Positions 18,381 to 55,713 of a stretch of 64,000 bases of DNA are shown piece by piece. Each line of letters opens with the position of its first letter. The first letter of the stretch is position 1. The notes below the pieces were generated by a model. That model did not search any database, was not told the origin of the DNA, and worked only from the letters and a program-made list of their open reading frames with translations. Both the position numbers and the translations under genes were made by a program. The stretch comes from Candidatus Latescibacterota bacterium (GTDB taxonomy: Bacteria; Latescibacterota; UBA2968): NCBI GenBank assembly GCA_965204745.1, contig OZ242010.1, positions 2,400,001-2,464,000 on the forward strand, given 5' to 3'.

Positions 18381-18606
18381 GCGAGCCTCCAATAAAGTCG
18401 GGGCAATGTACAGCGTCCCGCAAGCCGCGTCAAGCAATCGGTTGAGAGGCGTCATTTTATACTTGTTTTGGAATTGATCCGCCCCGAAGCCATCTGGGAT
18501 AAGAACGTTTTTTACAGAGATAATTTCTCTTTTATGTTGGCTTTTGGGCAACTATTTTCTAACTTTAGGATGATAAAACGAAAAATTCATCTTGGGAGAC
18601 AAGAAA

Positions 18607-19968: not shown

Positions 19969-20542
19969 ATTCAGCAGGCCAACCGGCAGGCTATCTTACC
20001 GAAAGCTATTTGTCATTGCCACAGAAGGAACAAAGACCGAGCCTCAATATTTCGACCTGTTCAAAAACAGTAAGCATTTGTTTATCCAGGTCGTAAAAAG
20101 CAAACATCACGCACCGCATCAAGTCTTGGGACGCCTGAAAGACCACCTCAAAGGGGAAGATCTGTCGCCTTCGGATGAGGCATGGCTGGTGGTAGATAAA
20201 GACAAATGGACTGACGATCAGTTGGCGCGACTCCACGCATGGTCACAGGAAGCGGATAATTACGGCTTTGCCCTCAGCAATCCCAAATTCGAGTACTGGT
20301 TGTTGCTCCACTTTGAACCTGGCACGAATATCGGATCATCACGCGAATGTTCAGCTCGGTTGAAGCGGCACTTGCCCAACTACGACAAAGACATTGATTC
20401 CCGGAAGTTCACGCCAGACAGGATCAAAGAAGCTATTGATCGGGCCAAGGCTCGTGATAACCCCCCATGTGCGGATTGGCCGCGCGCATTAGGTAGCACA
20501 ACGGTTTACAAACTGGTCGAGAAAATTTGCCATTTCCAATAA
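19949..20542 (+). CDS. rloB: RloB-family protein (AbiLii-like)
   Basis: [41 protein letters not shown]; overlaps the ATPase stop. Confidence 0.85.
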
Positions 20543-20838: not shown

Positions 20839-23800
20839 ATGAATCTCTGGCATTGGGTTGGCATTGGCTTGTTGATGGGTGTTGGCGTCGCGCAGGCGGC
20901 CGAGGTGCGCGTGGTGGCGACAGGCGACAACTGGATTGAAGTCGCCGTGTCCGAGGCGGATTTCGTTCCCACGCAATCGTCGTTTGCGAATGTATTGCAT
21001 CGGCCGGGCGCGCCTGCTGTGCCGGTGCGCGGCGCGATATTGGGCATGCCCTTTGGATCGCGTGCGGTCGTCCAAGTGGTAGAGGCGGACTACGAGGAAA
21101 TCGAAGGCATCGACCTCAGGCCCGTGCCGACAATCCAATGGCTCGGCTCTGAAGATCACCCATTTTCCAGATCGGTCTATGACCGCGATGCCGCCATTTA
21201 CCAACGCCCGGGATTTTACCCCGGCGCCGATGCCGTCATCGCACACACGGGCGTATTGCGCGATCAACAAGTCGCGGCCCTGTCCCTGCGCCCGGTGCAA
21301 TACGACCCCGTGCAACGCAGGCTTCGGATTGCGCGGCACCTGCGCGTGCGCGTGCAATTCATCCCAAGCGCGACCCGGCCCGCGGTTCGACCCGTGCGCG
21401 ACCCAGACGGTTTTGCCCCCGTGTACCAAAAGGGCTTGCTCAACGCGGAACAAGCCCGAAAGTGGCGCGGGCAACGCGCAGTCGCACCAAAACAAACCCG
21501 GGATTGGTACGACCCCACGGCCACGCACTACAAAATCAGAATTTTTGAAGACGGCCTCTACCGCATGGACGCCCGTTGGTTCGCCGAATCCGGCATCGCC
21601 TTATCGGACTTAGACCGCGTGCAACTGTTCTCAAACGGTGTGGAAATCCCCCTACTCGTCGAGGATGGCGGCGATGGCGCGTTGGACGCGGGCGATGGCA
21701 TCGCGTTTTGGGGCGCATTTCGGCGCATGCCAGATCGGGATTTTGAAAACGAGTACGGCAAAGAAAATATTTACTTTCTGCGCGTGGGCCGCGAACCCGG
21801 CCTGCGATACGCCCGCGTCAATGGCACGCCGATAAATAACGCGCCCGAAATCTCGCATTTTTGGTCGCGCAAACACGCCGAAATCGACTCGACTTTTGAA
21901 GCGATGGGCCGCGCGCGCCATGCGGATCGCGATCACTGGTTCTGGTGGCGCACCGCGTCTCCGTCTCACGCAGGTGGTCAGTCCTTTGAGGTGGTGATGC
22001 CCGTGCCACTGCCGGGGTTGGTGCGCGAAGCAGGGGGCAATGCACGGATTCGCCTGGGCATGCATTCGCTGACATTGAATCAAAACATCGACCCGGATCA
22101 CTACGCCGTCATCCGCATTCAAGACGGGCCGATCATCGCAGAAGCGCGTTGGGACGGGCAGGACGCGCATATCGCCACCGGCACGGCGCCCGTGGCCGCG
22201 CTGTCGGATACCACGCATATCGCGTTGCAAACGCCCGGGGATCCGGCGTTTCTGCGCCAACCGATCCCTTATGTCGATCACGTTTTTTTTAATTGGGTGG
22301 AGATCACCTATCCGCGCCGCTTTGCGGCCACGGATGGATTCCTGCGCTTTAACCTGGATAGCGTGCCGTCGCCTCGCACTGTGTCTATCGCCAATTTTAA
22401 CCATGCGCGGATTCGGGTTCTGAATCTGACCGCGCATCAGCTCATCGATCAAGTGCAAGTGGATGGCAAGTTGAACGCGACCTTTGAACTCGCTGAAACC
22501 GGCGATTTTGTGGCGGTGGATGTGACCGCGCTAAAAAGGCCCGAGCGCGCAACCCGAGACATTCCCTCTGATCTGCGCGGGTTCTCCGGCGCGGAATACG
22601 CGATCGTTTCCGGTGCGGATTTTATGAATACAGCCGAGCAACTGGCCGCGCATCGCCGAGCACGCGGCCTATCCACACGCGTGGTCGATGTGGCCGATGT
22701 GTACGACGAATTCTCCTTTGGGCAGGTCGATGCCGAAGCCATCCGCCGGTTCGTACAACACGGATTTCGCTCCTGGACGACCCGGCCCGTGTACGTGTTG
22801 TTGTTCGGAAAATTCAGCTTTGATTATCGCAATATATTTGGGCAAACCCGAGTTGCGCGTGCCAACCTCGTCCCCGGCATGCCATATCAATCCCCGAACC
22901 GGGGCTTGGCATTTACCGACGAATTTTTTGGGCGCATCGACGACGACTTGTTCATGGATGTGTTCGTCGGGCGTTTCTCCATCAGCCGCACGTCCCAAGC
23001 CAACACGGTCGTGCAAAAGGTCATCGATTACGACGAGACGCCGCCGGCGCTATGGCGCGACCGCATCTTGCTCATGGCGAATTGGGACGCGCATGATCCG
23101 CGCAAATTCATCGGCACGAGCGATTCGCTGGCGACATTCACCCGTGCGATTGGGCTGGAAAACTTCAAGGTGCATCACGATGAAAATACCCCGCCCGAGC
23201 CCAATGCCTCGACTCGAGAAGTCATTCGGCAGATCAACGAGGGGCGGTTGGTGGTCAATTTTATCGGGCACGGCAGCGCGGCGTCCATGAACAAATTCTT
23301 TGCCGGCACCTTTCAGCAGGGCGCGTTCAACTACGTCAGCCAAATTCAAAACCGCGAACGCCTGCCCTTGTTTATCGGCATGTCCTGCCTCAACGGGTTG
23401 TACTGGGAACCGCGCCTCATCAGCTTGGCAGAAGAAATGACCAACAAACGCGATGGGGGCGCAATCGCGTACATCTCCGCGTCTTCCCTCGCGTTCATCC
23501 GCATCAACAACGCACTCAATACGGCCTTGTTTTACCACACGTTTGAAAACGGCGTCTTGGCCTTTGGGCAGAGCCTCGCGCTGGCAAAGATGACCGAACT
23601 CTCGGCCCTGCCTTCGAGCGAATTGGGCTTGGTCACGATGAACCTCATCGGGGATCCCGCGCAACAACTCGCCCTGCCCTCTGGGCCGGATCTCGTCGTA
23701 GAAAACATACACCTGGACAGGCGAGGCGACCTGAGCACCGCCGACTCCGTGCGCGTAACCCTGCGCGTGGGCAACTGGGGGCTTTTGCCCGACCGCACTG

Positions 23801-32515: not shown

Positions 32516-33316
32516 TCATGCCGCGTGTTCGGCCGCCATCGTCAATTCCTCTCTGCCTTCCAACCCGGCGATCACCGGAAACGTGCGCGATGAGGCCGTG
32601 CCTCGCGCCATGTAGCGCACGGTCGGCGGAAAATACGCATAGAGCGCGGTGTGCCTGGGATGAGGCGAGTGGTTCGGCCCGGATCCGTGGACGCACAAGC
32701 TGTGAAACAACAGGGCCGTCCCTGCCTTGAGGGGCACTTCAAGGGCCGTAGCCAGATTTTTTTTCTCCGTCAACGCGGCATCTTGAGGCCGCGCAATATG
32801 CCCCCATTTCTGCATGCCCCACTTGTGGCTTTCGGGAATGACCTGAATGCACCCGTTCTCCGAATTGGAATCGGTCAGCGCGATGCTCACGGTCACGAGC
32901 GCGGGCGGCTCCATAGGCCAATACGCCGAATCCTGATGAAACCCGTGCGACGACCCGTGAAACGCGGGCTTGAGCATGAGAGTGCTACGGAACAACAACA
33001 AATCCAGCCCGATCAAATTTTGCACCACCGGCACCAGTTTGGGATGCGCGGCCAAATTTTTGAACACCTCGGAAAAATCGCGCGTCTGTTCGATCTTTCG
33101 CAACACCGGCAGGCCCTCTTGTCGTTTGTCCTTTGCATACGGCTCGCGCTGAAAATGGCCCGCACGCGTATCGCCCTGCTCGACCAATTCCGCGGCGAAG
33201 GCGTGTAAGTTGCGAATCTCCGCTTCGCACGCGCCCAACTCATCTGCCGACACCACGCCTTCGACGATGAGATAGCCTTGATCGTAAAAAAATGCCCTCT
33301 GTTCCTCTCGCGTCAT
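32516..33316 (-). CDS. Phytanoyl-CoA dioxygenase family protein
   Basis: FFYDQGYLIV, FHQDSAYW, ENGCIQVIPESH, FHSLCVHGS. Confidence 0.9.
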   Translation of the reverse strand: MTREEQRAFFYDQGYLIVEGVVSADELGACEAEIRNLHAFAAELVEQGDTRAGHFQREPYAKDKRQEGLPVLRKIEQTRDFSEVFKNLAAHPKLVPVVQNLIGLDLLLFRSTLMLKPAFHGSSHGFHQDSAYWPMEPPALVTVSIALTDSNSENGCIQVIPESHKWGMQKWGHIARPQDAALTEKKNLATALEVPLKAGTALLFHSLCVHGSGPNHSPHPRHTALYAYFPPTVRYMARGTASSRTFPVIAGLEGREELTMAAEHAA

Positions 33317-39515: not shown

Positions 39516-40118
39516 ATGCCGCGTAAAAATAGGTTTCTCAACATCGGCGACCCGGCCCCCTTATTCACGCTTCCCTCGCATCAGCAACGAGACGTGTCGC
39601 TGGCGTCACATCGAGGGAAAGACCGCGTCATCCTGACGTTTTTTCGGGGAACTTGGTGAAGGAGAAGCCGTCGTCAGTTGGCGACCGTGCAAGAACACCT
39701 TGACGCGTACACCCAACGCAACGCGACGTCTATTGCCATCGCCGCCGGGCAACAGGTCCGCGAACTGCGCGAATACGCCGAACGCAACGGCATCACCTAT
39801 CCGCTTCTGTTGGACGCAGACCAGAGCGTAATCAAAAGCTACGGGGTATATCACTATTTCGGCCTAGCGGGTCACAATTTCGCGTACAACATTTTTCGCC
39901 CGGCGACGTTCATCGCCGACAAACTCGGCTATCCGTTGTACAACTATATCGGCTTGGCGGATCGCAACCTCCGCAACACCATTGCCCGTCCCGCGACGTT
40001 TATCATCGATGAACTCGGCATGGTCCGGTATATGTATATCGGATCGAATCAGTTTGATTTGGCCGAACAGGAAGAAGTTCTCGCACACTTAAAATCGCTG
40101 AAGAGTGAGATCCAGTAA
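39516..40118 (+). CDS. AhpC/TSA (peroxiredoxin-like) selenoprotein with in-frame UGA at codon 48
   Basis: IGDPAPLFTL...VILTFFRGTW-TGA(39657-39659)-RRS continues in frame into track ORF 39678-40118 (YPLLLD, RPATFIID); hairpin GTCGTC-AGTT-GGCGAC 10 nt after the UGA. Confidence 0.8.
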
Positions 40119-40186
40119 GAGACTTCGTCGCCGCCTCGAATATCATCCAGATGCACTGAACAACCCGGCACCGTCGAGCAGGAAAA

Positions 40187-40228
40187 TCTCTCTCTACACG
40201 TCCATCAGTGAGAGGAGCGGATTGAAAC
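40187..40228 (+). repeat. Degenerate CRISPR repeat copy 4
   Basis: TCTCTCTCTACACGTCCATCA-gtgagaggagc-GGATTGAAAC matches both ends of the 37-bp repeat. Confidence 0.6.
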
Positions 40229-40278
40229 GCAAAAAGAAAAGGGTTGTGCTCGGCAGGCGATCTGTGTAAATTTTGCCT

Positions 40279-40390
40279 GCCCTTACAATGCAATGTAGAT
40301 CTCAATTTGGTAGAGTGGCTCGCCGAGGCAACTCGGTCAGCGGGTTGCGGGTTCGAGTCCCGTCATTGCGTTGTGGGGGCTATTTTTTTT
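40279..40390 (+). ncRNA. tRNA-like small RNA lacking anticodon and CCA
   Basis: 17-bp closing stem (40279-40295/40364-40380), D-like arm CTC-AATTTGGTA-GAG, CCGAG-GCAA-CTCGG, T arm GCGGG-TTCGAGT-CCCGT, T run; promoter TTGTGC-17-TAAATT (40244-40272). Confidence 0.7.
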
Positions 40391-40452
40391 TCCACTTCTA
40401 ACAAGGATTGAATGGCTTAGGTTTTTGGACATTAGCAACATTGAATCGACAT
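40390..40452 (+). repeat. Partial CRISPR repeat copy 5 plus a deleted copy of the sequence that follows repeat 2
   Basis: TTCCActtctAACAAGGATTGAA, then GCTTAG.TTTTTGGACATTA...ACATTGAATCGACAT, which matches 36522-36576. Confidence 0.6.
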
Positions 40453-40517
40453 AACGTAGATATGAACACATCGTTGACGCAGGCGTTTCGCCTAAATGCA
40501 ATGGCTGAACGACGCAG

Positions 40518-40557
40518 AGAAAAAGCCATCCCAAATTTATCGGGATGGCTTTTTTCT
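40518..40557. terminator. Bidirectional terminator
   Basis: AAAAAGCCATCCC-loop-GGGATGGCTTTTTT. Confidence 0.75.
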
Positions 40558-40761
40558 ATTCCATAACACCGCTTCCCTACCTTCTCGCCAACACCCGTGC
40601 GCGGGTTTGTGCAACGATGTCTTTTTGAGGCCCGGCGTTGGGGGCAGTTTTGCGATTGAGGAGTGCGAGGATATTTCTTTTGGAATGTACCATTTGTGCC
40701 TCTCCCTGCCCTGCATCCAAGTAGCCAGTAGTCAGTAAGTCAGTCCCCGCGCCCTAATCCC

Positions 40762-41992: not shown

Positions 41993-42029
41993 GGTGATGG
42001 TGTGTTTGTTCTATCCCTTGCCCCTGCGC

Positions 42030-42068
42030 CAAGATGAAGATAGCGATGGATTTGCCGATGGTGTGCAT
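42030..42068 (-). pseudogene. Truncated N-terminus (MHTIGKSIAIFI) of the array paralogue family
   Basis: Same RBS, leader and first 12 codons as the array genes, then loss of similarity. Confidence 0.7.
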
Positions 42069-42227
42069 GGGGTTCTCCTCTCTATGAGATCCATGTGCCG
42101 GTTAGAAACTGTTTTAATTTTTTCAAGACCTACCTTCGCGCCGCTCATTGTAGGCTACGCCTGGAACAAAAAAGAAGGTCTCCCCTCCCCGTTTCGGGGA
42201 GGGGCCGGGGGAGGGGTCCTATTCCTT

Positions 42228-43313
42228 TCAAAAATTGACCGTGAGCGCGGCGCGAAGCCCTTTGTCTCGCGTGGGCGCGATGCTCAGGTTGAGGCGTTGC
42301 GGCGATACCTCAACCCATTTCTCGGATTTTATTGTAGCACCCATGAGAGTCGAGAGAACCACTATGGATGGGAATATATACACCGCTGTCACGAATGTAG
42401 CAAGGCCACGCCAGTCGTTGTCCTCATCGTTCAAATCTACCAGCGCGATTGGAACGAGGATAATAAGTCCAAGCCCAAGCCCAATCTTAAAGCCTTTGCC
42501 CGTGTTTCGATGCTGTCCAATGCTGACTTCAAAGTTGGAGATTGAAGACATGGGGACTTGATAAAATGTGTGTCCACCTTGGATAACGACCGTGTCTCGA
42601 TTCATTTTTATGACCTCGCCAACGATCCGACTTTTTGAAAGTGAAGGGGCTTTGAAACGCACTTTGGCATTGAACAGGGTCTGTCTTGCATTTTTCCACC
42701 ACCGATCAATGTCTCGCTTGTGTTTAGCAACAACAAGTGTGTCAATGTCGCTGTATGCTATCCATCTTTCCCAGTTTTGCTTTTTGATTGCGATGCGGTT
42801 TGCGCCTTTACCGACAATCCACCCGGTTACGGTTTCTTTCGTCCTTTCTGGTGTATAGACGACATGGGCATACCATCCTTTTCTTATTTTTTTTAGATCA
42901 ATCTGCTCGCGTGTCATGACCGTGGGGAACTGTTGGTTGAACCGTTGGATGGCTTGTGCTTTATTCCGAATAACCCGATTCACCTCGTTCATCTGCGTCG
43001 CGGGCACGCTGGATTCTTCGCTCATGATTATGGATAGAACTTTGGCATAAGCGATAGTCGTCTTGCTCTTGAGTCCGCCGCTGCGAATGGTGAACGATGT
43101 CTCGCCTATCGCATCGATCCAGCCCCTCGCCATTCTTTCTCGGTCATTGCCATCGCGATAGGTGACAGCGATGTACGCATCTCGAACCAGCGCGTTGGCA
43201 TTGACCTGATCGCCTTGCAAGTGCTTGGCGGCATGTGCGAGCATGGGGGCCATCGCATTGAGCACGAGGGTCGCGGTGACAAAGATGGCGATGGATTTGG
43301 TGATGGTGTGCAT
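42228..43313 (-). CDS. Array paralogue 1: exported modular protein, type I C-terminus
   Basis: Signal MHTITKSIAIF...; ends LNLSIAPTRDKGLRAALTVNF. Confidence 0.8.
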   Translation of the reverse strand: MHTITKSIAIFVTATLVLNAMAPMLAHAAKHLQGDQVNANALVRDAYIAVTYRDGNDRERMARGWIDAIGETSFTIRSGGLKSKTTIAYAKVLSIIMSEESSVPATQMNEVNRVIRNKAQAIQRFNQQFPTVMTREQIDLKKIRKGWYAHVVYTPERTKETVTGWIVGKGANRIAIKKQNWERWIAYSDIDTLVVAKHKRDIDRWWKNARQTLFNAKVRFKAPSLSKSRIVGEVIKMNRDTVVIQGGHTFYQVPMSSISNFEVSIGQHRNTGKGFKIGLGLGLIILVPIALVDLNDEDNDWRGLATFVTAVYIFPSIVVLSTLMGATIKSEKWVEVSPQRLNLSIAPTRDKGLRAALTVNF

Positions 43314-43346
43314 GGGGTTCTCCTGTCTGTGAGGTTTGAGAGCCGG

Positions 43347-44183
43347 TTAGAACCGCAATGTGGCGATTGCCGATACGTTGCCATTGCGGTCAGGCGCGAG
43401 CCCGATTGAGAGCCGGCGGGGTTCAAGGGCAGGGTGTGACCGTTTGGACATCATCGCAACCCCGACGAGCGGGCCGATGAGCAGAGAAGGCCAGAGTTTT
43501 CTGTTGATGGCGGTCATCATAACCGTGCCTGCGCTCAATCCCATCGCGCTGCCTTTCAGCCCAACGCCAAATTGACCAGGTGTTTTTTGCATCAATGCGC
43601 GAATCCCTATGCCAATCCCACCGCCGATAAGCACGCCCAAAAAACTGTACATCGGGGCAGCGAAGCCACCGAGGGGATCATCCTCTTCATTGCTATTTAT
43701 TCCAATTTCCCAACCGATTATTCCACCTCCTATCCCTCCCAAAATACCCAAAGTGACAACACCGGGAACCCAGCGGCGGTTATCATCTGCCCTTTTTAGT
43801 GGACGCCCCAGACGCAGAAGGTTTTGGGCGTGCAACAGTTGGAATGGATTATCGCAAACCATGAGTTCTTCAATCCAAGTCCGCGGAATGGTCTTTTCTG
43901 TGTTGTCTCGGCGAATCGTCAGTTCGGTTTCATCTATCGCTCGGACGAATCCTTCCTCGGTTTCAATTTTGCCATCGCCTTTGCGATAGGTCACGCCGAC
44001 GTATCGGCCCTTGGCAACGACCAATTGCCGGGCGCGTTCACCGATAAACCGCTCAACCCCTGCAATCACCTCTGCGGGCGCGTTGTTCTCTGCCTGCGCG
44101 AGCGCAGGGGCCATCGCATTGAGCACGAGGGTTGCAGTGACAAAGATGGCGATGGATTTGGTGATGGTGCGTTCTGCGTACAT
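43347..44183 (-). CDS. Array paralogue 2, type II C-terminus
   Basis: Shared signal peptide; glycine-rich helices; ends LSIGLAPDRNGNVSAIATLRF. Confidence 0.8.
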   Translation of the reverse strand: MYAERTITKSIAIFVTATLVLNAMAPALAQAENNAPAEVIAGVERFIGERARQLVVAKGRYVGVTYRKGDGKIETEEGFVRAIDETELTIRRDNTEKTIPRTWIEELMVCDNPFQLLHAQNLLRLGRPLKRADDNRRWVPGVVTLGILGGIGGGIIGWEIGINSNEEDDPLGGFAAPMYSFLGVLIGGGIGIGIRALMQKTPGQFGVGLKGSAMGLSAGTVMMTAINRKLWPSLLIGPLVGVAMMSKRSHPALEPRRLSIGLAPDRNGNVSAIATLRF

Positions 44184-44227
44184 GGATGCCTCCGATTGAG
44201 TTTGGGGTGCTCGTTCTGCAACACGTC

Positions 44228-45142
44228 CTAAAATTTCAAAGATGGCCCAACCGCCACGGTCATTCCTCGCAAAAAATGATTATCCAAATACTCCCAAAAT
44301 AAGTCGGCTCGCACGGCGGCTTGCACGTTGATATGCGGATGAACAGGTACAAGGATCGCGGCACCCGCCGAACCGCGCGGACGGGTCGTCGATTCGTAAT
44401 CCCCTCCGCTCTGGTAGTAGATGTTCTCAAAGGATGCGCCAAACGCGAAATCGGCCAGCAAGACGACTCGTTTGCGATTGTTGAGGACATAAGCTTTTTG
44501 AAAGACCAGCAATGAGGAAAACACCCGTGCGGTCATGCCGGCCTCGCGTCGTCTAATTTCAGATTCACTTCTCCGCCAATGAGATACACTATATTCTTGG
44601 TCGGGCGAAACCGCAAAGATATTTACTTTTTGATACGCACATCGCAACCCAACCCGCGAACGGTCTTCATCAGAGAGGAAATCGCCGAAATAGAGAGACG
44701 CGGCCCACAGTGACTTTTTGTACCGATCACCAAAGATATAGAATCCCGTATACATTTTACTGATGTTAAAAAAATAACCGGCTTCAAGCGTCAATTCCGG
44801 TTTGAAATGGGTTAGCCATGAACGCGGGCCGGTCGTCTTTTTAGGTGCGGTCAACGCGATGATTTTGTGAATGCGCTCGCGGTCAATTTCCGTTTTCCAA
44901 GAATCGACGCCGATGATCAACCGCTTTGAATCAACCGCCTTGATTAGCCCTCTTACAGTCGCCATGCTTTCCCACTTCCCAGAGATCGAATCCCGCTCTC
45001 CCTCCCCATAAGTGATCATGACATACGCGCCGATTTCAACCGCGTTGCTGTCGATCTCCCCGGCTTTCACATCCACTTCTGCCCGTAGAACTCCTGGCAG
45101 ACACACGCCCAAAAGCAAAACGATTATCGCCATTCGTACCAT
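44228..45142 (-). CDS. Putative outer-membrane beta-barrel protein embedded in the array
   Basis: Signal peptide; N-terminal YVMITY...RGLIKAVD resembles the array domains; alternating beta strands; terminal Phe. Confidence 0.6.
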   Translation of the reverse strand: MVRMAIIVLLLGVCLPGVLRAEVDVKAGEIDSNAVEIGAYVMITYGEGERDSISGKWESMATVRGLIKAVDSKRLIIGVDSWKTEIDRERIHKIIALTAPKKTTGPRSWLTHFKPELTLEAGYFFNISKMYTGFYIFGDRYKKSLWAASLYFGDFLSDEDRSRVGLRCAYQKVNIFAVSPDQEYSVSHWRRSESEIRRREAGMTARVFSSLLVFQKAYVLNNRKRVVLLADFAFGASFENIYYQSGGDYESTTRPRGSAGAAILVPVHPHINVQAAVRADLFWEYLDNHFLRGMTVAVGPSLKF

Positions 45143-45174
45143 GTGTTCCTCCTGTCGAATCAGGATCCTTTGCG

Positions 45175-46377
45175 TTAAAAATTGACCGTGAGCGCGGCGC
45201 GAAGCCCTTTTTCAGGCGTGGGCGCGATGCTCAGGTTGAGGCGTTGCGGCGGCACTTCAACCCAGTTCTCGGATTTGGTTGCAGCACCCATGAGAGTCGA
45301 GAGAATCACTATGGATGGGAAGATATACGCCGCTGTAATAGCTGTGGCCCAGCCGTGCAATTCGAATTCGCCCCCTTCTTTATAATCTGCAATCGCGACT
45401 GGAACGAGGACAGCAAGTCCAAGCCCAAGCCCAATCATAAAACCTTTGTCCGCGTTTCGACGCTGTCCAATGCTGGCTTCAAAATTAGAGATGGAAGACA
45501 TGGGCACTTGAAGAATCGCCATCTTTATCACCGCGGCACTCGTGCTCAATGTACGTCCTTCTCGGATGAGAAGTGTGTCTTGCGTCATTTTGACGACCTC
45601 GCCAACGATCCATTCTTTTGTCAGTGAAGGAACTTTGAAACGCACTTTGGCATTGTGTGTCATGAACCGCTGTATGGCTTTTGTCTCTGCTTCTATTTTC
45701 TTTTTTTTTCGCGCTACTGCATTCCGTTGCGTTAAGTACACGCCTGTATCTGCACTCATGACCAATGTCATCACTTTGGCGTATGCAATGGTCGTCTTGC
45801 CCAAGAGGCCGTTTTGAATCGTGAACGATGTGTCGCCAATCGCCTTAATAATCCCCGCTTTCTCCTGTTTCAGTTTATTGTCCTCGTAATAGGTGACGAC
45901 AGCGTAGGCATTTTGAACCAGCGTATCGGCCTTGACCTGTTCGCCTTGCAGGTGGATAACCCCGGTCCTTGCCTTCTGTTCTGCCTTTGCCGCTCTTCTT
46001 TCTGCCTTTGCCGCTCTTCTTTTTTCATCTCTGATAAACCGATTTACCTCATTCATCTGCTTCGCGGGCACGCTTGATTCCTCGCTCATGATTATGGATA
46101 GGACTTTGGCGTAGGCGATAGTCGTCTTGCTCTTGAGTCCGCCGCTGCGAATGGTGAACGATGTCTCGCCTATCGCATCGATCCAGCCCCTCGCCGTTCT
46201 TTCTCGGCCATTGCCATCGCGATAGGTGACAGCGATGTACGCATCTCGAACCAGCGCGTTGGCATTGACCTGATCGCCTTGCAAGTGCTTGGCGGCCTGC
46301 GCGAGCATGGGAGCCATCGCGTTGATCAGAATGGTCGCCGTGACGAAAATGGCGATGGATTTGCCGATGGTGTGCAT
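45175..46377 (-). CDS. Array paralogue 3, type I
   Basis: Duplicated HLQG(D/E)QV...TY...AIG.TSFTI domain. Confidence 0.8.
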   Translation of the reverse strand: MHTIGKSIAIFVTATILINAMAPMLAQAAKHLQGDQVNANALVRDAYIAVTYRDGNGRERTARGWIDAIGETSFTIRSGGLKSKTTIAYAKVLSIIMSEESSVPAKQMNEVNRFIRDEKRRAAKAERRAAKAEQKARTGVIHLQGEQVKADTLVQNAYAVVTYYEDNKLKQEKAGIIKAIGDTSFTIQNGLLGKTTIAYAKVMTLVMSADTGVYLTQRNAVARKKKKIEAETKAIQRFMTHNAKVRFKVPSLTKEWIVGEVVKMTQDTLLIREGRTLSTSAAVIKMAILQVPMSSISNFEASIGQRRNADKGFMIGLGLGLAVLVPVAIADYKEGGEFELHGWATAITAAYIFPSIVILSTLMGAATKSENWVEVPPQRLNLSIAPTPEKGLRAALTVNF

Positions 46378-46532
46378 GGGGTTCTCCTCTCTATGAGGTT
46401 TGAGAGCCGGTTAGAAACTGTTTTAATTTTTTCAAGACCTACCTTCGCGCCGCTCATTGTAGGCTACGCCTAAAATAAAAAAAGAAGGTCTCCCCGTTTC
46501 GGGGAGGGGCCGGGGGAGGGGTCCTATTCCTT

Positions 46533-47690
46533 TCAAAAATTGAACGTGAGCGCGGCGCGAAGTCCTTTGTCTCGCGTGGGCGCGATGCTCAAGTTGAGAT
46601 GTTGCGGCGATACCTCAACCCATTTCTCGGATTTTATTATCGTCCCCATGAGAGTCGAGAGAACCACTATGGGTAGGAATGCTATTGTCTCTAAAGGGAT
46701 GCCTGGCCATTCGTTCGGCAATATGATCTCGTCGTTAGAATTAGAATCTGCAATCGCGGCTGTAACAACGACAGCATATCCAAGCCCAAGCCCAATCATA
46801 AAACCTTTGCCCGCGTTTCGACGTTGCCCCAGGCTGGCTTCAAAATTGGAGATTGAAGACATGGGCACTTCAAGAAATGTACGTCCTTCTCGGATGAGAA
46901 GTGTGTCTTGCGTCATTTTGACGACCTCGCCAACGATCCGACTTTTTGAAAGTGAAGGGGCTTTGAAACGCACTTTGGCATTGTGTGTCATGAACCGTTG
47001 CATTGCATTGCTTGCATTTTTCAACTCTTCAACAGATCCTCGGTATTTAGCGTTGGCGACAACTATCGCGTCGATATCGCCGTATGCTATCGTGTCGATA
47101 TCGCCGTATGCTCTTTCCCAGGTTTTTCCGACGAATCTGGCCTTATTTTTGAACTCGTGGATTACGATATGCTTTGCGTCTTTGGTGATAATCCATCCGG
47201 TTGCGGTTTCTTTTTGGTTTTCTGATGTATAGATGGCATGGGCATACCATCCCTTTGTGATCTTCTCGGGGACGATCTGCTCGCCTTGCAGGTGGATAAC
47301 CCCGGTCCTTGCCTTCTGTTCTGCCGCTCTGCTTTTTTGATCTCTGATAAACCGATTCACCTCATTCATCTGCTTCGCGGGCACGCTTGAGGCTTCGCTC
47401 ATGATTATGGATAGGACTTTGGCGTAGGCGATAGTCGTCTTGCTCTTGAGTCCGCCGCTGCGAATGGTGAACGATGTCTCGCCTATCGCATCGATCCAGC
47501 CCCTCGCCGTTCTTTCTCGGCCATTGCCATCGCGATAGGTGACAGCGATGTACGCATCTCGAACCAGCGCGTTGGCATTGACCTGATCGCCTTGCAAGTG
47601 CTTGGCGGCATGTGCGAGCGCAGGGGTCATCGCATTGAGCACGAGGGTTGCAGTGATGAAGATAGCGATGGATTTGCCGATGGTGTGCAT
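46533..47690 (-). CDS. Array paralogue 4, type I
   Basis: Shared modules; ends ALTFNF. Confidence 0.8.
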   Translation of the reverse strand: MHTIGKSIAIFITATLVLNAMTPALAHAAKHLQGDQVNANALVRDAYIAVTYRDGNGRERTARGWIDAIGETSFTIRSGGLKSKTTIAYAKVLSIIMSEASSVPAKQMNEVNRFIRDQKSRAAEQKARTGVIHLQGEQIVPEKITKGWYAHAIYTSENQKETATGWIITKDAKHIVIHEFKNKARFVGKTWERAYGDIDTIAYGDIDAIVVANAKYRGSVEELKNASNAMQRFMTHNAKVRFKAPSLSKSRIVGEVVKMTQDTLLIREGRTFLEVPMSSISNFEASLGQRRNAGKGFMIGLGLGYAVVVTAAIADSNSNDEIILPNEWPGIPLETIAFLPIVVLSTLMGTIIKSEKWVEVSPQHLNLSIAPTRDKGLRAALTFNF

Positions 47691-47850
47691 GGGGTTCTCC
47701 TTTCTGTGAGGTTTGAGAGCCGGTTAGAAACTGTTTTAATTTTTTCAAGACCTACCTTCGCGCCGCTCATTGTAGGCCACGCGAAAAATACAAAAAGAAG
47801 GTCTCCCCTCCCAGTTTCGGGGAGGGGCCGGGGGAGAGGTCCTATTCCTT

Positions 47851-49020
47851 TCAAAAATTGACCGTGAGCGCGGCGCGAAGTCCTTTGTCTCGCGTGGGCG
47901 CGATGCTCAAGTTGAGATGTTGCGGCGATACCTCAACCCATTTCTCGGTTTTTATTATCGTCCCCATGAGAGTCGAGAGAACCACTATGGATGGGAATAT
48001 ATACACCGCTGTAATAGCTGTGGGAAAGCCTTGCAATTCCCCCTCTACTTTATAATCTTCAATCGCGACTGGAACAAGGACAGCAAGTCCAAGCCCAAGC
48101 CCAATCATAAAACCTTTGCCCGCGTTTCGACGTTGCCCCAGGCTGGCTTCAAAATTGGAGATTGAAGACATGGGCACTTCAAGAAATGTACGTCCTTCTC
48201 GGATGAGAAGTGTGTCTTGCGTCATTTTGACGACCTCGCCAACGATCCGACTTTTTGAAAGTGAAGGGGCTTTGAAACGCACTTTGGCATTGTGTGTCAT
48301 GAACCGTTGCATGGCCTTGCTTGCATTTTTCAACTCTTCAACAGATCCTCGGTATTTAGCGTTAGCGACAACTATCGCGTCGATATCGCCGTATGCTATC
48401 GTGTCGATATCGCCGTATGCTCTTTCCCAAGTTTTTCCGACTCGCCAACGATCCGTTCTTTCGAATCTGGCCTTATTTTTGAACTCGTGGATTACGATAT
48501 GCTTTGCGTCTTTGGTGATAATCCATCCGGTTGCGGTTTCTTTTTTTCCTTCTGATGTATAGATGGCATGGGCATACCATCCCTTTGTGATCTTCTCGGG
48601 GACGATCTGATCGCCTTGCAGGTGGATAACCCCGGTCTTTGCCTTCTGTTCTGCCTTTCTTCTTTTTTCATCTTTGATAAACCGATTCACCTCGTTCATC
48701 TGCGTCGCGGGCACGCTTGAGGCTTCGCTCATGATTATGGATAGGACTTTGGCGTAGGCGATAGTCGTCTTGCTCTTGAGTCCGCCGCTGCGAATGGTGA
48801 ACGATGTCTCGCCTATCGCATCGATCCAGCCTTTTGCCGTTCTTTCTCGGTCATTGCCATCGCGATAGGTGACAGCGACATAAGCATCTCGAACCAGCGC
48901 GTTGGCATTGACCTGATCGCCTTGCAAGTGCTTGGCGGCCTGCGCGAGCGCAGGGGCCATCGCGTTGAGCACGAGGGTTGCAGTGATGAATATGGCGATG
49001 GATTTGGTGATAGTGTACAT
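47851..49020 (-). CDS. Array paralogue 5, type I
   Basis: Start trimmed to MYTITK; near-identical to paralogue 4 except in the C-terminal variable region. Confidence 0.8.
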   Translation of the reverse strand: MYTITKSIAIFITATLVLNAMAPALAQAAKHLQGDQVNANALVRDAYVAVTYRDGNDRERTAKGWIDAIGETSFTIRSGGLKSKTTIAYAKVLSIIMSEASSVPATQMNEVNRFIKDEKRRKAEQKAKTGVIHLQGDQIVPEKITKGWYAHAIYTSEGKKETATGWIITKDAKHIVIHEFKNKARFERTDRWRVGKTWERAYGDIDTIAYGDIDAIVVANAKYRGSVEELKNASKAMQRFMTHNAKVRFKAPSLSKSRIVGEVVKMTQDTLLIREGRTFLEVPMSSISNFEASLGQRRNAGKGFMIGLGLGLAVLVPVAIEDYKVEGELQGFPTAITAVYIFPSIVVLSTLMGTIIKTEKWVEVSPQHLNLSIAPTRDKGLRAALTVNF

Positions 49021-49054
49021 GGGGGTTCTCCTTTCTGTGAGATCCAGGTGCCGG

Positions 49055-50224
49055 TTAGAACCGCAGGGTGGCGATTGCCGATACGTTGCCATTGCGGTCA
49101 GGCGCGAGGCCGATTGAGAACCGACTATCTTTAGGCAACTTGCGTGACCTCTCGGACATAATCACAGACCCGACGAGCGGGCCGACGAACAGGGCGGGCC
49201 AAGTTTGGTCTTTCAATCTGACACTAAGAATCCCGATTCCCAATCCCATGAGGCTACCGAGCATTGATTTGACAGATTGATCGTACGGATCCACAATGCT
49301 CACCCCAAGTGCCATTCCTACCGTATAGGCAATACCCGCGCCAACAACTACTCCTTCAATACATCCGAGATATTTATCACTACACTTACTCCCAATATTA
49401 TTTTGTAATCCACCGCCTACAGCACCTCCCAACCAAAAGAAAGAACCGCCCACAAGAGGTCCGAGAAGCAATTTTTTGGCAATGCGGACTGGAGGGCGAT
49501 CTTCATCTCTTTTCTTGTTTCTTAGGGCGATGCGCTTGGCGTGCTGAAGCTGGCTTGGATGTTCGCAGACGATCAAAACGTCAATCCCATTCAATGGGAT
49601 TTTCTTCTGCCAAATACCCCGGCGAATCGTCAGTTCGGTTTCATCCCTCGCTTGGACGAATCCTTCCACTGTTTCAATTTTGCCATTGTCTTTGCGATAG
49701 GTCACGCCGACGTAGCGGCCCTTGGCAACGACCACTTGTCGGGCGCGTTCACCGATAAACCGCTCGACCCCTGCAATCACCTCTTCGGGCGCGTTGTTCT
49801 CTGTCTGTGCGAGCGCAGGGGCCCTCGCCTCGCTGGCCTCTTCTTTGGCCTGTTCTCTCTCTCTCGCTTTCATATTCCGAATAAACCGATTTACCTCATT
49901 CATCTGCTTCGCGGGCACGCTGGAGGCTTCGCTCATGATCACGGACAGGACTTTGGCATAGGCGATAGTCGTCTTGCTCTTGAGTCCGCCGCTGCGAATG
50001 GTGAACGATGTCTCGCCTATCGCATCGATCCAGCCCCTCGCCGTTCTTTCTCGGCCATTGCCATCGCGATAGGTGACGGCGATGTACGCATCTCGAACTA
50101 GCGCGTTGGCATTGACCTGCTCGCCTTGCAGGTGCTTGGCGGCATGTGCGAGCATGGGGGCCATCGCATTGAGCACGAGGGTTGCAGTGACAAAGATAGC
50201 GATAGATTTGCCGATGGTGTGCAT
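49055..50224 (-). CDS. Array paralogue 6, chimera (first-class N-domain fused to a type II body)
   Basis: Junction ...ARAPALAQTENNAP reuses the end of the signal peptide internally. Confidence 0.8.
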   Translation of the reverse strand: MHTIGKSIAIFVTATLVLNAMAPMLAHAAKHLQGEQVNANALVRDAYIAVTYRDGNGRERTARGWIDAIGETSFTIRSGGLKSKTTIAYAKVLSVIMSEASSVPAKQMNEVNRFIRNMKAREREQAKEEASEARAPALAQTENNAPEEVIAGVERFIGERARQVVVAKGRYVGVTYRKDNGKIETVEGFVQARDETELTIRRGIWQKKIPLNGIDVLIVCEHPSQLQHAKRIALRNKKRDEDRPPVRIAKKLLLGPLVGGSFFWLGGAVGGGLQNNIGSKCSDKYLGCIEGVVVGAGIAYTVGMALGVSIVDPYDQSVKSMLGSLMGLGIGILSVRLKDQTWPALFVGPLVGSVIMSERSRKLPKDSRFSIGLAPDRNGNVSAIATLRF

Positions 50225-50236
50225 GGGGTTCTCCTT

Positions 50237-50866
50237 TCAAAAATTGACTGTGAGCGCGGCGCGGAGCCCTTTGTCAAGCGTGGGCGCGATGCTCAGGTTG
50301 AGGCGTTGCGGCGATACCTCAACCCATTTCTCGGTTTTTGTTGCAACACCAATGAGAGTCGAGAGAACCACTATGGGAGGGGCAATGGCTACAGTATCTG
50401 TATTCAGCAGAGGACTGAGATAAGGGGCACTAAAAAAAAGAGTAATTCCAAGCCCAAGTCCAACTGACAAGCCTTTGCCCGTGTTTCTACGTTGCCCCAT
50501 GCTGACTTCCGTATTGGTGATTGCAGACAAAGGCACGCGATAAAGTGTACGTCCTTTTTCAACAGGTGTTCGGCGTCCGGGCATGAAAATCCACCCTGTG
50601 CCTTCGATAACGAGTGTGTCTTGTGTCATGCTGACGATTCGACCAATAATCCGTTTTTTTGAGATTGCATGAACATGAACGCGCACTCTGGCATTGCGAA
50701 ATGGTCTGGCATCGCCTCTCACATCTTCTTCACCGATAAACCGCTCAACCCCTGCAATCACCTCTGAGGGCGCGTTGTTCTCTGTCTGCGCGAGTGCAGG
50801 GGCCATCGCGTTGAGCACGAGTGCCGCGGTGATGAAGATGGCGATGGATTTGGTGATGGTGTGCAT
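50237..50866 (-). CDS. Array paralogue 7, short type I
   Basis: Start MHTITK; ENNAP stub joined to a type I C-domain. Confidence 0.8.
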   Translation of the reverse strand: MHTITKSIAIFITAALVLNAMAPALAQTENNAPSEVIAGVERFIGEEDVRGDARPFRNARVRVHVHAISKKRIIGRIVSMTQDTLVIEGTGWIFMPGRRTPVEKGRTLYRVPLSAITNTEVSMGQRRNTGKGLSVGLGLGITLFFSAPYLSPLLNTDTVAIAPPIVVLSTLIGVATKTEKWVEVSPQRLNLSIAPTLDKGLRAALTVNF

Positions 50867-50877
50867 GGGGTCTCCTT

Positions 50878-51534
50878 TCAAAAATTGACCGTGAGCGCGG
50901 CGCGGAGCCCTTTGTCAGGCGTGGGCGCGATACTCAAGTTGAGGCGTTGCGGCGGCACTTCAACCCATTTCTCGGATTTTGTTGCAACACCAATGAGAGT
51001 CGAGAGAAGACATAGAGATACAGCTCCACCCACGCCGATAACGAAGAACGCCGCTCCTCGTCCCAGTCCTAGATCTCCACTATCTGGAGTTTTCACTGTA
51101 GTGCTCACTACAAGCAAAAAAGTCAATCCAAGCCCAAGTCCAAAGCCAAAGCCTTTGCCCGCGTTTCTCCGCCGTCCCATGCTGACTTCAAGGTTGGTGA
51201 TTGAAGACATGGGCACTTGATACAATGTCTGTCCATCTTGGGTCATGACTGTGTTGGCAGTGATTTCGCGTAGTTGGGGCCAAGGCATCCGCGCCAGTTT
51301 AAGAACGAGCGTGTCTCGATTCATTTTTACGACCTCGCCAATGATTCGCCTTTTTGAGATGACCGGGGCATGAACACGCACTTTGGCGTTGGGTGTCTTG
51401 ATTCGTTGTATGGGAGTCTGGTTGACCTTTGTACTTTGCGAGTCTGCGGTAGCCTGCGCGAGCGCAGGGGCCATCGCATTGATCACGAGGGTTGCAGTGA
51501 CAAAGATGGCGATAGATTTGGTGATGGTGTACAT
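50878..51534 (-). CDS. Array paralogue 8, short type I
   Basis: Start MYTITK; ends ALTVNF. Confidence 0.8.
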   Translation of the reverse strand: MYTITKSIAIFVTATLVINAMAPALAQATADSQSTKVNQTPIQRIKTPNAKVRVHAPVISKRRIIGEVVKMNRDTLVLKLARMPWPQLREITANTVMTQDGQTLYQVPMSSITNLEVSMGRRRNAGKGFGFGLGLGLTFLLVVSTTVKTPDSGDLGLGRGAAFFVIGVGGAVSLCLLSTLIGVATKSEKWVEVPPQRLNLSIAPTPDKGLRAALTVNF

Positions 51535-51568
51535 GGGGGTTCTCCTTTCTGTGAGGTTTGAGAGCCGG

Positions 51569-52414
51569 TTAGAACCACAACGTGGCGATTGCCGATACGT
51601 TGCCATTGCGGTCTGGCGCGAGGCCGATTGAGAACCGGCGTGACCGAAAGGGATTTGATCGCTCGGACATGATGATCGATCCGATGGTAGCCCCAAAGGG
51701 CGAGACAACAATAAAGGCTGCCCCAACATTTCTACTGGTGACACTTCCGATTAACACGCCTGCCCCCGCGCCCAAAAGGCTACCTACCAGCGTATTGAGA
51801 AACCGATCATCAGGATCAACTATGCTCATGCCGAGAGGACATCCGATGATGTAGCCAGCCGAAGCACCTGTCAGGAACACAGCTATTTTCCCCCATCCGC
51901 AAAACGTCTCACCACTTTCACACTTGTCCAGAGGAAGCACCGCGCCCGTCCCGGCCAAAAAACCCAAACTGATACCTGCCAAAATACCAGCGGTCAATTT
52001 GCCGCCCACTCCCGTATCCCTGTTGAACAACCCTCTTTGACGACTCTCCTTGCCCAGGATGTATCGGGCGCGCTGAAGTTGGCTTGGATGCTCGCAGACG
52101 ATCAAAACGTCAATCCCATTCAATGGGATTTTCTTCTGCCAAATACCCCGGCGAATCGTCAGTTCGGTTTCATCCCTCGCTTGGACGAATCCTTCCACTG
52201 TTTCAATTTTGCCATTGTCTTTGCGATAGGTCACGCCGACGTAGCGGCCCTTGGCAACGACCACTCGCCGGGCGCGTTCACCGATAAACCGCTCAACCCC
52301 TGCAATCACCTCTGCGGGCGCGTTGTTCTCTGTCTGCGCGAGCGCGGGGGCCATCGCGTTGAGCACGAGGGTTACGGTGACAAAGATGGCGATAGATTTG
52401 GTGATGGTGTACAT
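51569..52414 (-). CDS. Array paralogue 9, type II
   Basis: Start MYTITK; ends SAIATLWF. Confidence 0.8.
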   Translation of the reverse strand: MYTITKSIAIFVTVTLVLNAMAPALAQTENNAPAEVIAGVERFIGERARRVVVAKGRYVGVTYRKDNGKIETVEGFVQARDETELTIRRGIWQKKIPLNGIDVLIVCEHPSQLQRARYILGKESRQRGLFNRDTGVGGKLTAGILAGISLGFLAGTGAVLPLDKCESGETFCGWGKIAVFLTGASAGYIIGCPLGMSIVDPDDRFLNTLVGSLLGAGAGVLIGSVTSRNVGAAFIVVSPFGATIGSIIMSERSNPFRSRRFSIGLAPDRNGNVSAIATLWF

Positions 52415-52659
52415 GGGGGTTCTCCTTTCTGTGAGATTTATGTGCCGGTTAGAACCGCAGGGTGGCAATCGCTTTTGAGGGCGCGTTTTTGTGGATATTT
52501 CCATCGCCATTTCCATTGGCAGAGTTGCGTTCCAACAGAAATGGCGATGGATTGAGAGACGACTGAGTACGCGGCGTCTCATCTCCGGAAACAGCGGCAA
52601 CACTCACAACGAGCAGGGTAAAAGTTGCGGATAATATTTTCCTGGAAGCCTCCCTCGTT

Positions 52660-54699: not shown

Positions 54700-55713
54700 T
54701 TATCCTTTGATGTATGTCAACATACCGATAATGATCACTGCGACCGCAACGATCAATGACAGCCATTTGATGGTTCGCTCCTGCGCGTGGTGGATATCAT
54801 TCTTCAAATTCGTCTCCACACGCATAACCTGGGCACCCACGCGGTTGATGTCCTCTTTCGCGGTCTTTTCCGCACGCATAATACGGGCATCCATGCGGTT
54901 GATGTCCTCTTTCGCGGTCTTTTCCGCACGGATAACCTGGGCACCCACGCGGTTGATGTCCTCTTTCGCGGTCCTTTCCGCATGCATAACCTGGGCACCC
55001 ACGCGGTTGATGTCCTCTTTCAAGTCAGTCTCCACGCGGTTGATGTCCTCCTTCAAGGTCTTTTCCGCATGGACAACATGGGCATCCACGCGGTTGATCT
55101 CTTTCTTCAAGCCAGTTTCCACGCGGTTGATGTCCTCCTTCAAGGTCTTTTCCGCATGGACAACATGGGCATCCACGCGGTTGATGTCCTCTTTCAAGGT
55201 CTTTTCCACATGGATAACATGAGCCTCCACGCGGTTGATCTCTTTCTTCAAGCCAGTCTCCACATGGCTGATTTCTTCCTTCAAGCCAGTTTCCACGCGG
55301 ACAATCTCCTCCTTCAAGCCAGTTTCCACGCGGTTGATCTCCTCCTTCAGGTCAGTCTCCACGCGGTTGATTTCTTCCTTCAAGCCAGTTTCCACGCGGT
55401 TGATCTCCTCCTTCAGGTCAGTCTCCACGCGGACAATCTCCTCCTTCAAGCCAGTTTCCACGCGGACAATCTCCTCCTTCACGTTCGTCTCCACGCGGTT
55501 AATATTGTGCTCCATGCGCGTAAAGCCCGCGTTCATCAGGTTCATCACTTGCTCGAAGCGATCAATCGTTTGCTCCTCTACGCGGCGAATGTCTTTCGCG
55601 TTCTGCGCGACTTGATCGCCGACGACCGCCCCGTTCTTTTCGATAGCGATGAGCCGCTGATCCTGCTCTGCGAATTTCTGATCGTGTTGCGCGATCTTCT
55701 CTGCATCTGTCAT
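54700..55713 (-). CDS. Bdr/DUF1640-like coiled-coil protein, copy 3, with expanded 11- and 18-aa repeats
   Basis: Same MTDAEKIAQ start and IKWL...TYIKG end; (EEINRVETGLK)n and (EDINRVDAHVVHAEKTLK)n. Confidence 0.8.
   Translation of the reverse strand: MTDAEKIAQHDQKFAEQDQRLIAIEKNGAVVGDQVAQNAKDIRRVEEQTIDRFEQVMNLMNAGFTRMEHNINRVETNVKEEIVRVETGLKEEIVRVETDLKEEINRVETGLKEEINRVETDLKEEINRVETGLKEEIVRVETGLKEEISHVETGLKKEINRVEAHVIHVEKTLKEDINRVDAHVVHAEKTLKEDINRVETGLKKEINRVDAHVVHAEKTLKEDINRVETDLKEDINRVGAQVMHAERTAKEDINRVGAQVIRAEKTAKEDINRMDARIMRAEKTAKEDINRVGAQVMRVETNLKNDIHHAQERTIKWLSLIVAVAVIIIGMLTYIKG

Follow-up and report, generated by a model that had tools for sequence, protein, structure and literature searches.

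What kind of protein is encoded by a tandem array of genes that are almost identical over long blocks of DNA and sharply different in one short segment, and how does such a pattern arise? We address this question for ten open reading frames (ORFs) on the minus strand at 42228-52414 of a 64,000-nucleotide (nt) stretch of contig OZ242010.1 (positions 2,400,001-2,464,000; assembly GCA_965204745.1) from a Candidatus Latescibacterota bacterium, a diderm, uncultured sponge symbiont whose genome is a single 5.48-Mb contig. The whole stretch is referred to below as the window, and array positions are given in window coordinates. Nine of the ORFs (g1, g2, and g4 to g10) are paralogs; the tenth, g3, had not been among the genes named in the first-pass annotation of this DNA. 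The array is real: an uncharacterized envelope-protein family with a cassette-like variable hairpin has expanded here in tandem and is strongly mosaic. Weighing the evidence on its membrane location, we read it, with a probability of roughly 0.6, as the tandem, recombination-shuffled expansion of a family anchored in the outer membrane, and probably of a new kind of outer-membrane protein family.

The outline of the array given by the first-pass annotation, with its genes, variable loops, alternative C-termini, terminal gene stubs, and common leader and ribosome-binding site (RBS), is borne out in both position and detail, on the minus strand. The leader/RBS AAGGAGAACCCC precedes all nine paralogs, which also have in common the signal peptide M(H/Y)TI(T/G)KSIAIF..NAMAP.LA(Q/H)A. 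As judged by reading the sequences, these signal peptides are of the AxA type, end in ...APALAQ(A/T) or ...APMLA(H/Q)A, and contain no cysteine. An alignment of the nine paralogs and an AlphaFold2 (AF2) model of g5 (overall predicted local distance difference test score, pLDDT, 67.7) define their modules: between zero and three small Sm/SH3-like barrels are combined with one of two membrane modules. The first, M1, consists of one hydrophobic hairpin and ends in ...T(V/F)NF (six genes), and the second, M2, has four glycine-rich segments, that is, two hairpins, and ends in ...ATL(R/W)F (three genes). Barrel C always occurs with M1 and barrel D always with M2, whereas barrel A is found with either; D stands in for A to C in g2, g7, and g10. 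In g4, A' is a diverged second copy of A, and C carries an 11-residue insert. Barrels A, B, and C of g5 are modeled confidently (pLDDT 80-93) and are predicted to have the common small-barrel fold, which by itself gives no indication of function. The helices of the g5 hairpin are placed at residues 293-317 and 333-351 with pLDDT 40-55, and the sequences show GLGLG and GxxxG runs. Between the helices lie the loops, which read VDLNDEDNDWRG in g1, ADYKEGGEFELHG in g4, and ADSNSNDEIILPNEWPG in g5.

At the DNA level, the array is repetitive far beyond chance, with 13 families of direct repeats; among these are blocks of 300 nt that occur five times (90-97% identity) and blocks of 291 nt that occur three times (84-97%). 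Between these blocks the hairpins drop to 48-71% nucleotide identity, in keeping with the alternation of near-identical blocks and divergent loops remarked on earlier. The comparison of g5 with g6 is representative of how abrupt the transitions are: identity is 97% in barrels A and B, 100% in barrel C, and 98% in the tail, and within the hairpin it is 92% in the first transmembrane segment, 48% in the loop, and 68% in the second transmembrane segment. Taken as one unit, this hairpin is 71% identical, with nonsynonymous and synonymous divergence (dN and dS) of 0.44 and 0.19, against 99% identity and a dS of 0 over the 93 codons next to it. The nearest relative of g6 is g5 in the barrels and g4 in the hairpin (97, 82, and 83% over the three hairpin parts). 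The C-terminal tail is the most conserved part of all, with 88-98% nucleotide identity between copies.

The mosaic nature of the array is also apparent in a breakpoint analysis, one of the checks that the first-pass annotation had proposed. Incompatible informative sites cluster along g1, g4, g5, and g6: the observed neighbor incompatibility is 0.338, whereas permutation gives a mean of 0.383 and a value as low in 20 of 2000 cases. A quartet analysis of the same four genes has few informative sites in the hairpin, because most of these sites have three or more states, and the region-by-region identities are the more telling evidence. Two genes are visibly chimeric. In g7, the sequence APALAQ followed by TENNAP, a signal-peptide end plus the mature start of a D-type gene, lies between barrels A and D, and in g8 the signal peptide and the first ~19 mature residues of a D-type gene are joined to C and M1. 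A homolog from another sample, P0007, combines a g5/g6-type front with a g4-type rear that includes the 11-residue insert of g4. The proposal of a recombination-diversified, exported, membrane-inserting family is upheld by these chimeras and by the mosaic identities.

Module shuffling extends past the array. Over its N-terminal 101 residues, g3 shares 46% identity (E 8e-26) with the N-terminus of another gene of this genome (L025:3608-4687), the remainder of which is D plus M2 and 40% identical to g7 (E 1e-84). The neighbor of that gene (L025:4731-5504) has the same N-terminal module and a third kind of C-terminus. In our reading, the array grew by tandem duplication, gene conversion, and cassette exchange, with gene conversion keeping the barrels and tail near-identical among copies, and the hairpin persists as discrete divergent cassettes that are swapped among paralogs and evolve without purifying selection on their sequence.

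The behavior of the hairpin in homologs gives a clearer view of these cassettes. Hairpins could be parsed in 72 of 317 family proteins and in the six M1 genes of the window. The hairpins of P0002 and P0003, which are 97% and 96% identical to g5, are exactly that of g5, and P0006 carries exactly the hairpin of g6; P0004, at 91% identity to g5, is nearly invariant over its first ~295 residues and has a wholly different hairpin. Among the 166 pairs with a flank identity of at least 85%, hairpin identity is bimodal, falling below 0.6 in 92 pairs and reaching at least 0.9 in 35. Since hairpin types are unchanged between strains, the hairpin is a cassette of discrete types and not a hypermutating site. 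The dN/dS ratio, another of the checks suggested beforehand, is 0.80-2.28 for the hairpin, exceeding 1 in 12 of 15 pairs but based on 43-56 codons with an uncertain loop alignment, as against 0.31-0.56 for the flanks. Because dS is raised in the hairpin as well, the cassettes are old alleles rather than fresh mutations, held apart from the conversion that homogenizes the flanks.

Near-identical flanks around divergent cassettes are the substrate on which programmed antigenic or phase variation operates, in which the cassettes of a population would change places between copies frequently. Inter-paralog recombinants such as P0007, from another sample, and the hairpin dN/dS of about 1 or above also speak for it. 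We nevertheless give such a switching system, which the first-pass annotation had put forward as antigenic variation, a slim chance. All nine paralogs are complete and have their own RBS, and no silent cassette is present. Their spacers measure 11-44 nt, except for three long ones of 155-160 nt after g6, g5, and g1, the last of which recurs as a repeat in the other two. Since each of the long spacers contains a terminator-like hairpin with a T run, an AT-rich stretch, and a leader, three transcription units are likely: g10 to g6, g5 alone, and g4 to g1. The promoters have no flanking inverted repeats in a repeat scan, so that no invertible promoter is indicated, and the tandem repeats inside the array are limited to in-frame 21- and 24-nt duplications, leaving no simple-sequence switch. 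As had been noted earlier for recombinases and reverse transcriptases, the 38 window ORFs outside the array (scanned in sets of 8 and 30, ten of the 30 without family) include neither of these, nor a transposase. The identity of hairpins in homologs that are themselves 96-97% identical, together with the raised hairpin dS, also speaks against frequent switching.

Two specific candidates for such a system were considered and rejected. For a diversity-generating retroelement, a search limited to the 38 window ORFs that flank the array yielded no reverse transcriptase, and the hairpins are unchanged in the 96-97% identical homologs. A classical antigenic-variation cassette system would call for silent donors, and none is found in the array.

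Where the hairpins reside is the question on which the favored reading depends. In the wider family, for which 65 hairpins were parsed and 139 representatives compared at the C-terminus, the net charge of the loop is negative in 50 of 65 hairpins and that of the flanks positive in 61 of 65; if the hairpin entered the inner membrane from the periplasmic side, the positive-inside rule would predict the opposite. A cysteine pair is present in the first loop of 19 of the 23 M2-type rows, as in KCSDKYLGC of g7 and KCESGETFC of g10, and 28 of the 65 wider-family hairpins contain at least two cysteines; such pairs fit an oxidizing compartment and do not fit the cytoplasm. The tail is made of alternating hydrophobic residues with a final phenylalanine in all ten genes, and a phenylalanine or tryptophan ends 105 of the 139 representatives, so that the terminal strand pointed out in the first-pass annotation is real and conserved. 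The genome of the window has six Omp85-family matches above cut-off. Among distant relatives of the anchor, 23 of 62 match a glycine-zipper Pfam family at E ≤ 0.01, one of them above cut-off (P0241, 30.3 versus 25), and the characterized members of these families are outer-membrane proteins.

The tenth gene of the array, in which a related barrel at the N-terminus is combined with a β-barrel-like C-terminus, adds to this picture. The C-terminal half of g3 is predicted to form eight long strands, and although the model has a pLDDT of 47.9, it matches only outer-membrane barrels (OmpA, OmpT/Pla, and OpcA; 50 matches at E ≤ 1e-3, TM-scores 0.29-0.48). Hence, g3 is probably an outer-membrane β-barrel. 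The anchor is interchangeable with this half of g3, since the N-terminal module of g3 is fused to D plus M2 elsewhere in the genome. Given all of the above, an outer-membrane location of the paralogs seems rather likely to us.

Several observations weigh against this location. The M1 helices are so hydrophobic (e.g., LAVLVPVAIA and IFPSIVVLSTLMG) that one would expect them to arrest in the inner membrane. The signal peptides of the paralogs have no lipobox, and the route by which SlyB reaches the outer membrane is therefore unavailable to them. The M1 loops in the window contain no cysteine. Confidence in the structural models is low where it matters most, with AF2 pLDDT of 30-55 for the hairpin and tail and, as mentioned, 47.9 for g3, and the dN/dS values come from a short stretch that aligns uncertainly. 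None of the array proteins in the window reaches a Pfam cut-off, and 5 of the 10 have no match at E ≤ 1; a profile of the M2 type gave two matches at E ≤ 10 among PDB sequences (0.086 and 0.29), neither of them significant. The best window match to a glycine-zipper Pfam family is that of g7 to PF05433, at 13.1 bits versus a cut-off of 24.2 (E 0.095), and nothing near cut-off was found in NCBIfam for the 5 of ten proteins tested. A four-copy oligomer prediction for residues 44-218 of g9 scored 0.00 and is counted neither way.

The alternative suggested by these points is that the paralogs are periplasmic proteins anchored in the inner membrane, with a hairpin that stops transfer and re-inserts, a cytoplasmic loop, and periplasmic barrels and tail. 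The M1 segments, at 19-24 residues, very hydrophobic, and predicted to be helical, would suit such an arrangement, as would the absence of a lipobox or of a known sorting route to the outer membrane. We consider this unlikely, however. It would place acidic loops and their cysteine pairs in the cytoplasm, contrary to the positive-inside rule given the basic flanks, and it does not account for the conserved tail with its aromatic terminus or for the interchangeability of the anchor with a barrel-like module.

For an outer-membrane location, we propose the following arrangement. The proteins would be exported via their cleavable signal peptide, leaving the barrels (0-3) in the periplasm. A glycine-zipper helical hairpin (one in M1, two in M2) would serve as the anchor, followed by the conserved tail of two or three strands that resembles a β-signal and ends in phenylalanine. 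The hairpin would span the outer membrane as the SlyB/YfgH hairpin does, with its acidic, often disulfide-bonded loop at the cell surface and the basic flanks at the inner leaflet. Phage or host recognition may be the selective agent. Taken to its full extent, this would amount to a new class of non-lipoprotein helical outer-membrane proteins. In these, a short C-terminal β-signal-like hairpin would bring the helical hairpin to the outer membrane and insert it there, either via the β-barrel assembly machinery (BAM) or through pairing of its strands with those of a partner barrel, for which g3 is a candidate; the surface loop would be diversified in sponge symbionts by cassette exchange between tandem paralogs, possibly as an escape from phage or host recognition. 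This more far-reaching proposal is tentative, and we hold it to be doubtful in its entirety.

Glycine-zipper hairpins are also known in membrane-damaging toxins, and a family that is multicopy and variable could in principle consist of toxins, secreted or contact-dependent, or of polymorphic effectors, with the membranes of other cells as the site of insertion. A glycine-zipper effector of the type VII secretion system (T7SS) is reported in PMC12955049. The first-pass annotation had likewise raised polymorphic effectors, and here its suggestion does not hold up well: the variable part is internal, with the most conserved part at the C-terminus, and the short spacers leave no room for immunity ORFs. 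The window ORFs flanking the array include no secretion-system genes, and the match to a diphtheria-toxin-like PDB chain is not significant (E 0.086). We regard this explanation as very improbable. The standard layout of a polymorphic toxin locus, with a conserved N-terminus, a variable C-terminal toxin, and an immunity gene, was also tried as a template and rejected, given tails that are 88-98% identical and spacers without an ORF.

The positions and architectures of the array genes, the stubs at either end, and the long spacers are collected in Table 1. Of the genes listed, g9 has the architecture that constitutes the minimal unit of the wider family. After its 12 codons, the reading frame of the N-terminal stub departs from the family. 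Scans of 39.5-53 kb for tRNA and Rfam families gave no match. Just upstream of g10, inside the remnant ORF 52449-52607, lies a 20-nt inverted repeat (52500-52551; 90% complementary, 12-nt loop), which could be the terminator of an upstream gene or a regulatory hairpin.

Table 1. Genes, gene stubs, and long spacers of the array in window coordinates (aa, amino acids; SP, signal peptide; A to E, barrels).
Feature	Position	Strand	Length	Content	C-terminal end
N-terminal stub	42033-42068	-	12 codons	first 12 codons (MHTIGKSIAIFI) of a further paralog, full leader in front	
Spacer after g1	42069-42227	-	159 nt	terminator-like hairpin 42171-42190 with T run, AT-rich promoter-like stretch, leader, RBS	
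g1	42228-43313	-	361 aa	SP, A, B, C, M1; hairpin 42330-42488	...TVNF
g2	43347-44183	-	278 aa	SP, D, M2; four glycine-rich segments 43452-43769	...ATLRF
g3	44228-45142	-	304 aa	different SP, E, strand-rich C-terminal half	...PSLKF
g4	45175-46377	-	400 aa	SP, A, A', C, M1; hairpin 45277-45441	...TVNF
Spacer between g5 and g4	46378-46532	-		repeat of spacer after g1; terminator-like hairpin 46490-46506, AT-rich stretch, leader, RBS	
g5	46533-47690	-	385 aa	SP, A, B, C, M1; hairpin 46635-46802	...TFNF
Spacer between g6 and g5	47691-47850	-		repeat of spacer after g1; terminator-like hairpin 47795-47812, AT-rich stretch, leader, RBS	
g6	47851-49020	-	389 aa	SP, A, B, C, M1; ATG at 49020; hairpin 47953-48111	...TVNF
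g7	49055-50224	-	389 aa	SP, A, internal APALAQ remnant, D, M2	...ATLRF
g8	50237-50866	-	209 aa	SP, D-type mature start, C, M1; hairpin 50339-50470	...TVNF
g9	50878-51534	-	218 aa	SP, C, M1; hairpin 50980-51150	...TVNF
g10	51569-52414	-	281 aa	SP, D, M2	...ATLWF
C-terminal stub	52449-52472	-	7 codons + stop	end of an M2-type gene, followed by the 34-nt leader of g10	AIATLRF

The family is widespread. There are 322 homologs of g5 at E ≤ 1e-3; among the 120 of these matches listed, 7 have a named source, and all 7 are annotated as 'hypothetical protein' in metagenome-assembled genomes (MAGs) labeled Candidatus Poribacteria (3) or Gemmatimonadota/Gemmatimonadetes (4). In named genome records with the anchor, 8 of 9 loci are in Latescibacteria/Latescibacterota MAGs and 1 is in Gemmatimonadota. 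Among related genomes, 29 of 31 (counting that of the window) contain the family, with 1-27 matches each, and in a sample of the phylum it occurs in 44 of 121 genomes, concentrated in two taxonomic families (24 of 28 and 12 of 13). A search with an M1 anchor profile gives 224 clusters (50% identity) at E ≤ 1e-3, of which 59 reach E ≤ 1e-10; many of the 224 are ~180-residue proteins with a signal peptide, one barrel, and the anchor, and in one distant relative, P0249, the unit of barrel plus hairpin is repeated three times. In the ESM Atlas, the clusters nearest to the g5 anchor are unnamed hypotheticals (0.94-0.91), with Borrelia P13, DUF5683, and Gly-zipper_YMGG scoring no more than 0.81-0.84, as leads and nothing firmer. 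No description of the family was found in the literature searched (open-access papers and bioRxiv), and term searches within PMC7081726 and PMC12993501 returned no passage describing it.

Further copies of the family are found at two other loci of the window genome. At a second locus, in this genome (L024 4705-5538) and in a genome of the same genus (L023 6886-7737), an M1-type paralog is followed by a protein of ~280 aa with a similar signal peptide and an unrelated C-terminus (...YLMSDSDNTGSTVTGAFADL.FQKSK).

A repeat family of this kind could also be collapsed or made chimeric by assembly, and short-read contigs from four public runs do break at the repeats, with none spanning the array. 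An artifact is nevertheless barely credible. The genome is one contig; contigs from these four runs, each from a different study, recover the unique segments at 95-100% identity; all frames are open and the spacers regular. In addition, an array of ~8 genes adjoins the same LPG_synthase_TM gene and repeat protein in a genome of the same genus (G018). This comparison, akin to the check across strains that had been named in advance, places the array in a syntenic position with a different module composition. In total, fifteen public runs from seven studies, labeled as sponge or marine metagenomes or as coded organisms and compared as assembled contigs, contain parts of the array. Cover of bins 48999-49840 is sparse or missing in X12, X13, and X1, and that of X12 does not extend past ~50.7 kb; neither gap is readable as absence. 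A joint from 42000 to 47655 in X10 and X13, with only 30-40 nt on its shorter side, is ambiguous because the sequence around it is a repeat shared by the two places.

Around the array, the window contains several genes of separate interest. The repeat protein just mentioned (54700-55713, minus strand; 337 aa) consists almost entirely of ~11-residue repeats of the KEDINRVE type with a C-terminal hydrophobic helix; its DNA has tandem repeats with periods of 33, 54, and 87, and its Pfam matches are weak and sub-cut-off (Apolipoprotein, Baculo_PEP_C). The gene of this kind that adjoins the array in the same-genus genome is at L022 2922-3893. On the plus strand, 20839-26460 encodes a protein of 1873 aa with a C25 (gingipain-family) peptidase and its propeptide, CARDB, and a C-terminal FlgD_ig-like domain, and 18592-20542 holds an adjacent pair of AAA_21 (AbiEii-like ATPase) and RloB-like genes in an arrangement typical of a defense system. 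Two sulfatases, a BNR-repeat protein, a GH130-like protein, and two PhyH dioxygenases are encoded on the minus strand at 5481-13511 and 32516-33316; gene content like this is often reported for sponge symbionts. An AhpC/TSA-like ORF (39678-40118, plus strand) has an apparent internal duplication of ~30 residues (RPATFI.D.LG...Y.YIG twice), and the ~640 nt between this ORF and an LD-carboxypeptidase gene (40119-40761) contain no convincing ORF and no tRNA or Rfam match.

Helical proteins are rare in bacterial outer membranes, and the route by which they are delivered is poorly understood. A widespread, unnamed family in which a glycine-zipper hairpin is joined to a β-signal-like tail would give a testable model of helical outer-membrane targeting. 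The array is also a clean natural example of gene conversion that keeps flanks uniform while sparing one short cassette, and surface variation in a sponge symbiont could bear on phage pressure and host recognition. Should the proteins instead reside in the inner membrane, the finding would reduce to an ordinary lineage-specific expansion of paralogs.

How, then, does the family compare with known systems? The barrels resemble Sm/SH3-like barrels, namely the C-terminal domain of RimP (PF17384), LSM (PF01423), and DUF5749. Structure alignment against RimP-C, Hfq/Sm, GerQ, and comparable small barrels gives Z of 5.4-7.8, none reaching 8 and all within the range of a common arrangement, and the Pfam matches of the window proteins are sub-threshold; the distant relative P0249 reaches 47.8 bits for LSM against a cut-off of 23.4. 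A Foldseek search with the g5 model yielded weak tandem Tudor/KOW matches (3 at E ≤ 1e-3, TM-scores 0.13-0.25) and no functional lead. Unlike these barrels, those of the array are exported and tethered to a membrane hairpin.

Gene-conversion-diversified surface families include Helicobacter Hop, Anaplasma Msp2/P44, and Treponema Tpr. The array has in common with them conserved flanks around variable segments and mosaic identity between copies. It differs in protein architecture, in that all of its copies look expressed, and in that the arrangement of an expression site with silent cassettes is absent; its host, moreover, is a sponge symbiont and not a pathogen.

A terminal β-strand ending in phenylalanine is the recognition signal of BAM, as the first-pass annotation had noted, and with BAM-assembled β-barrel proteins all ten array genes share an alternating-hydrophobic final strand of this kind. 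The low-confidence model of g3 matches barrels of this class. The nine paralogs, however, have only two or three short strands after the helical hairpin, and AF2 predicts no barrel for them, at low confidence.

The closest likeness is to SlyB and YfgH, members of the glycine-zipper families PF05433, PF13441, and PF13488, to which the distant anchor relatives counted above are matched. The hairpin of SlyB spans the outer membrane, and here as there a periplasmic β domain is linked to a glycine-rich hairpin, which in the array proteins is predicted to be helical. According to 10.64898/2025.12.22.696046, YfgH is a glycine-zipper lipoprotein that spans the outer membrane and is predicted to assemble into SlyB-like rings. 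The only near-cut-off PF05433 match in the window genome (24.1 bits) is at G000:C1:2388180-2388293 on the plus strand, ~12 kb before the window and outside the array. Unlike SlyB and YfgH, the array family has AxA-type signal peptides without a lipobox, places its β domains N-terminal to the hairpin, and adds a strand tail ending in phenylalanine after it; it is also expanded and mosaic. As far as the sequences allow, the array family would resemble SlyB and YfgH in its workings while standing outside their families.

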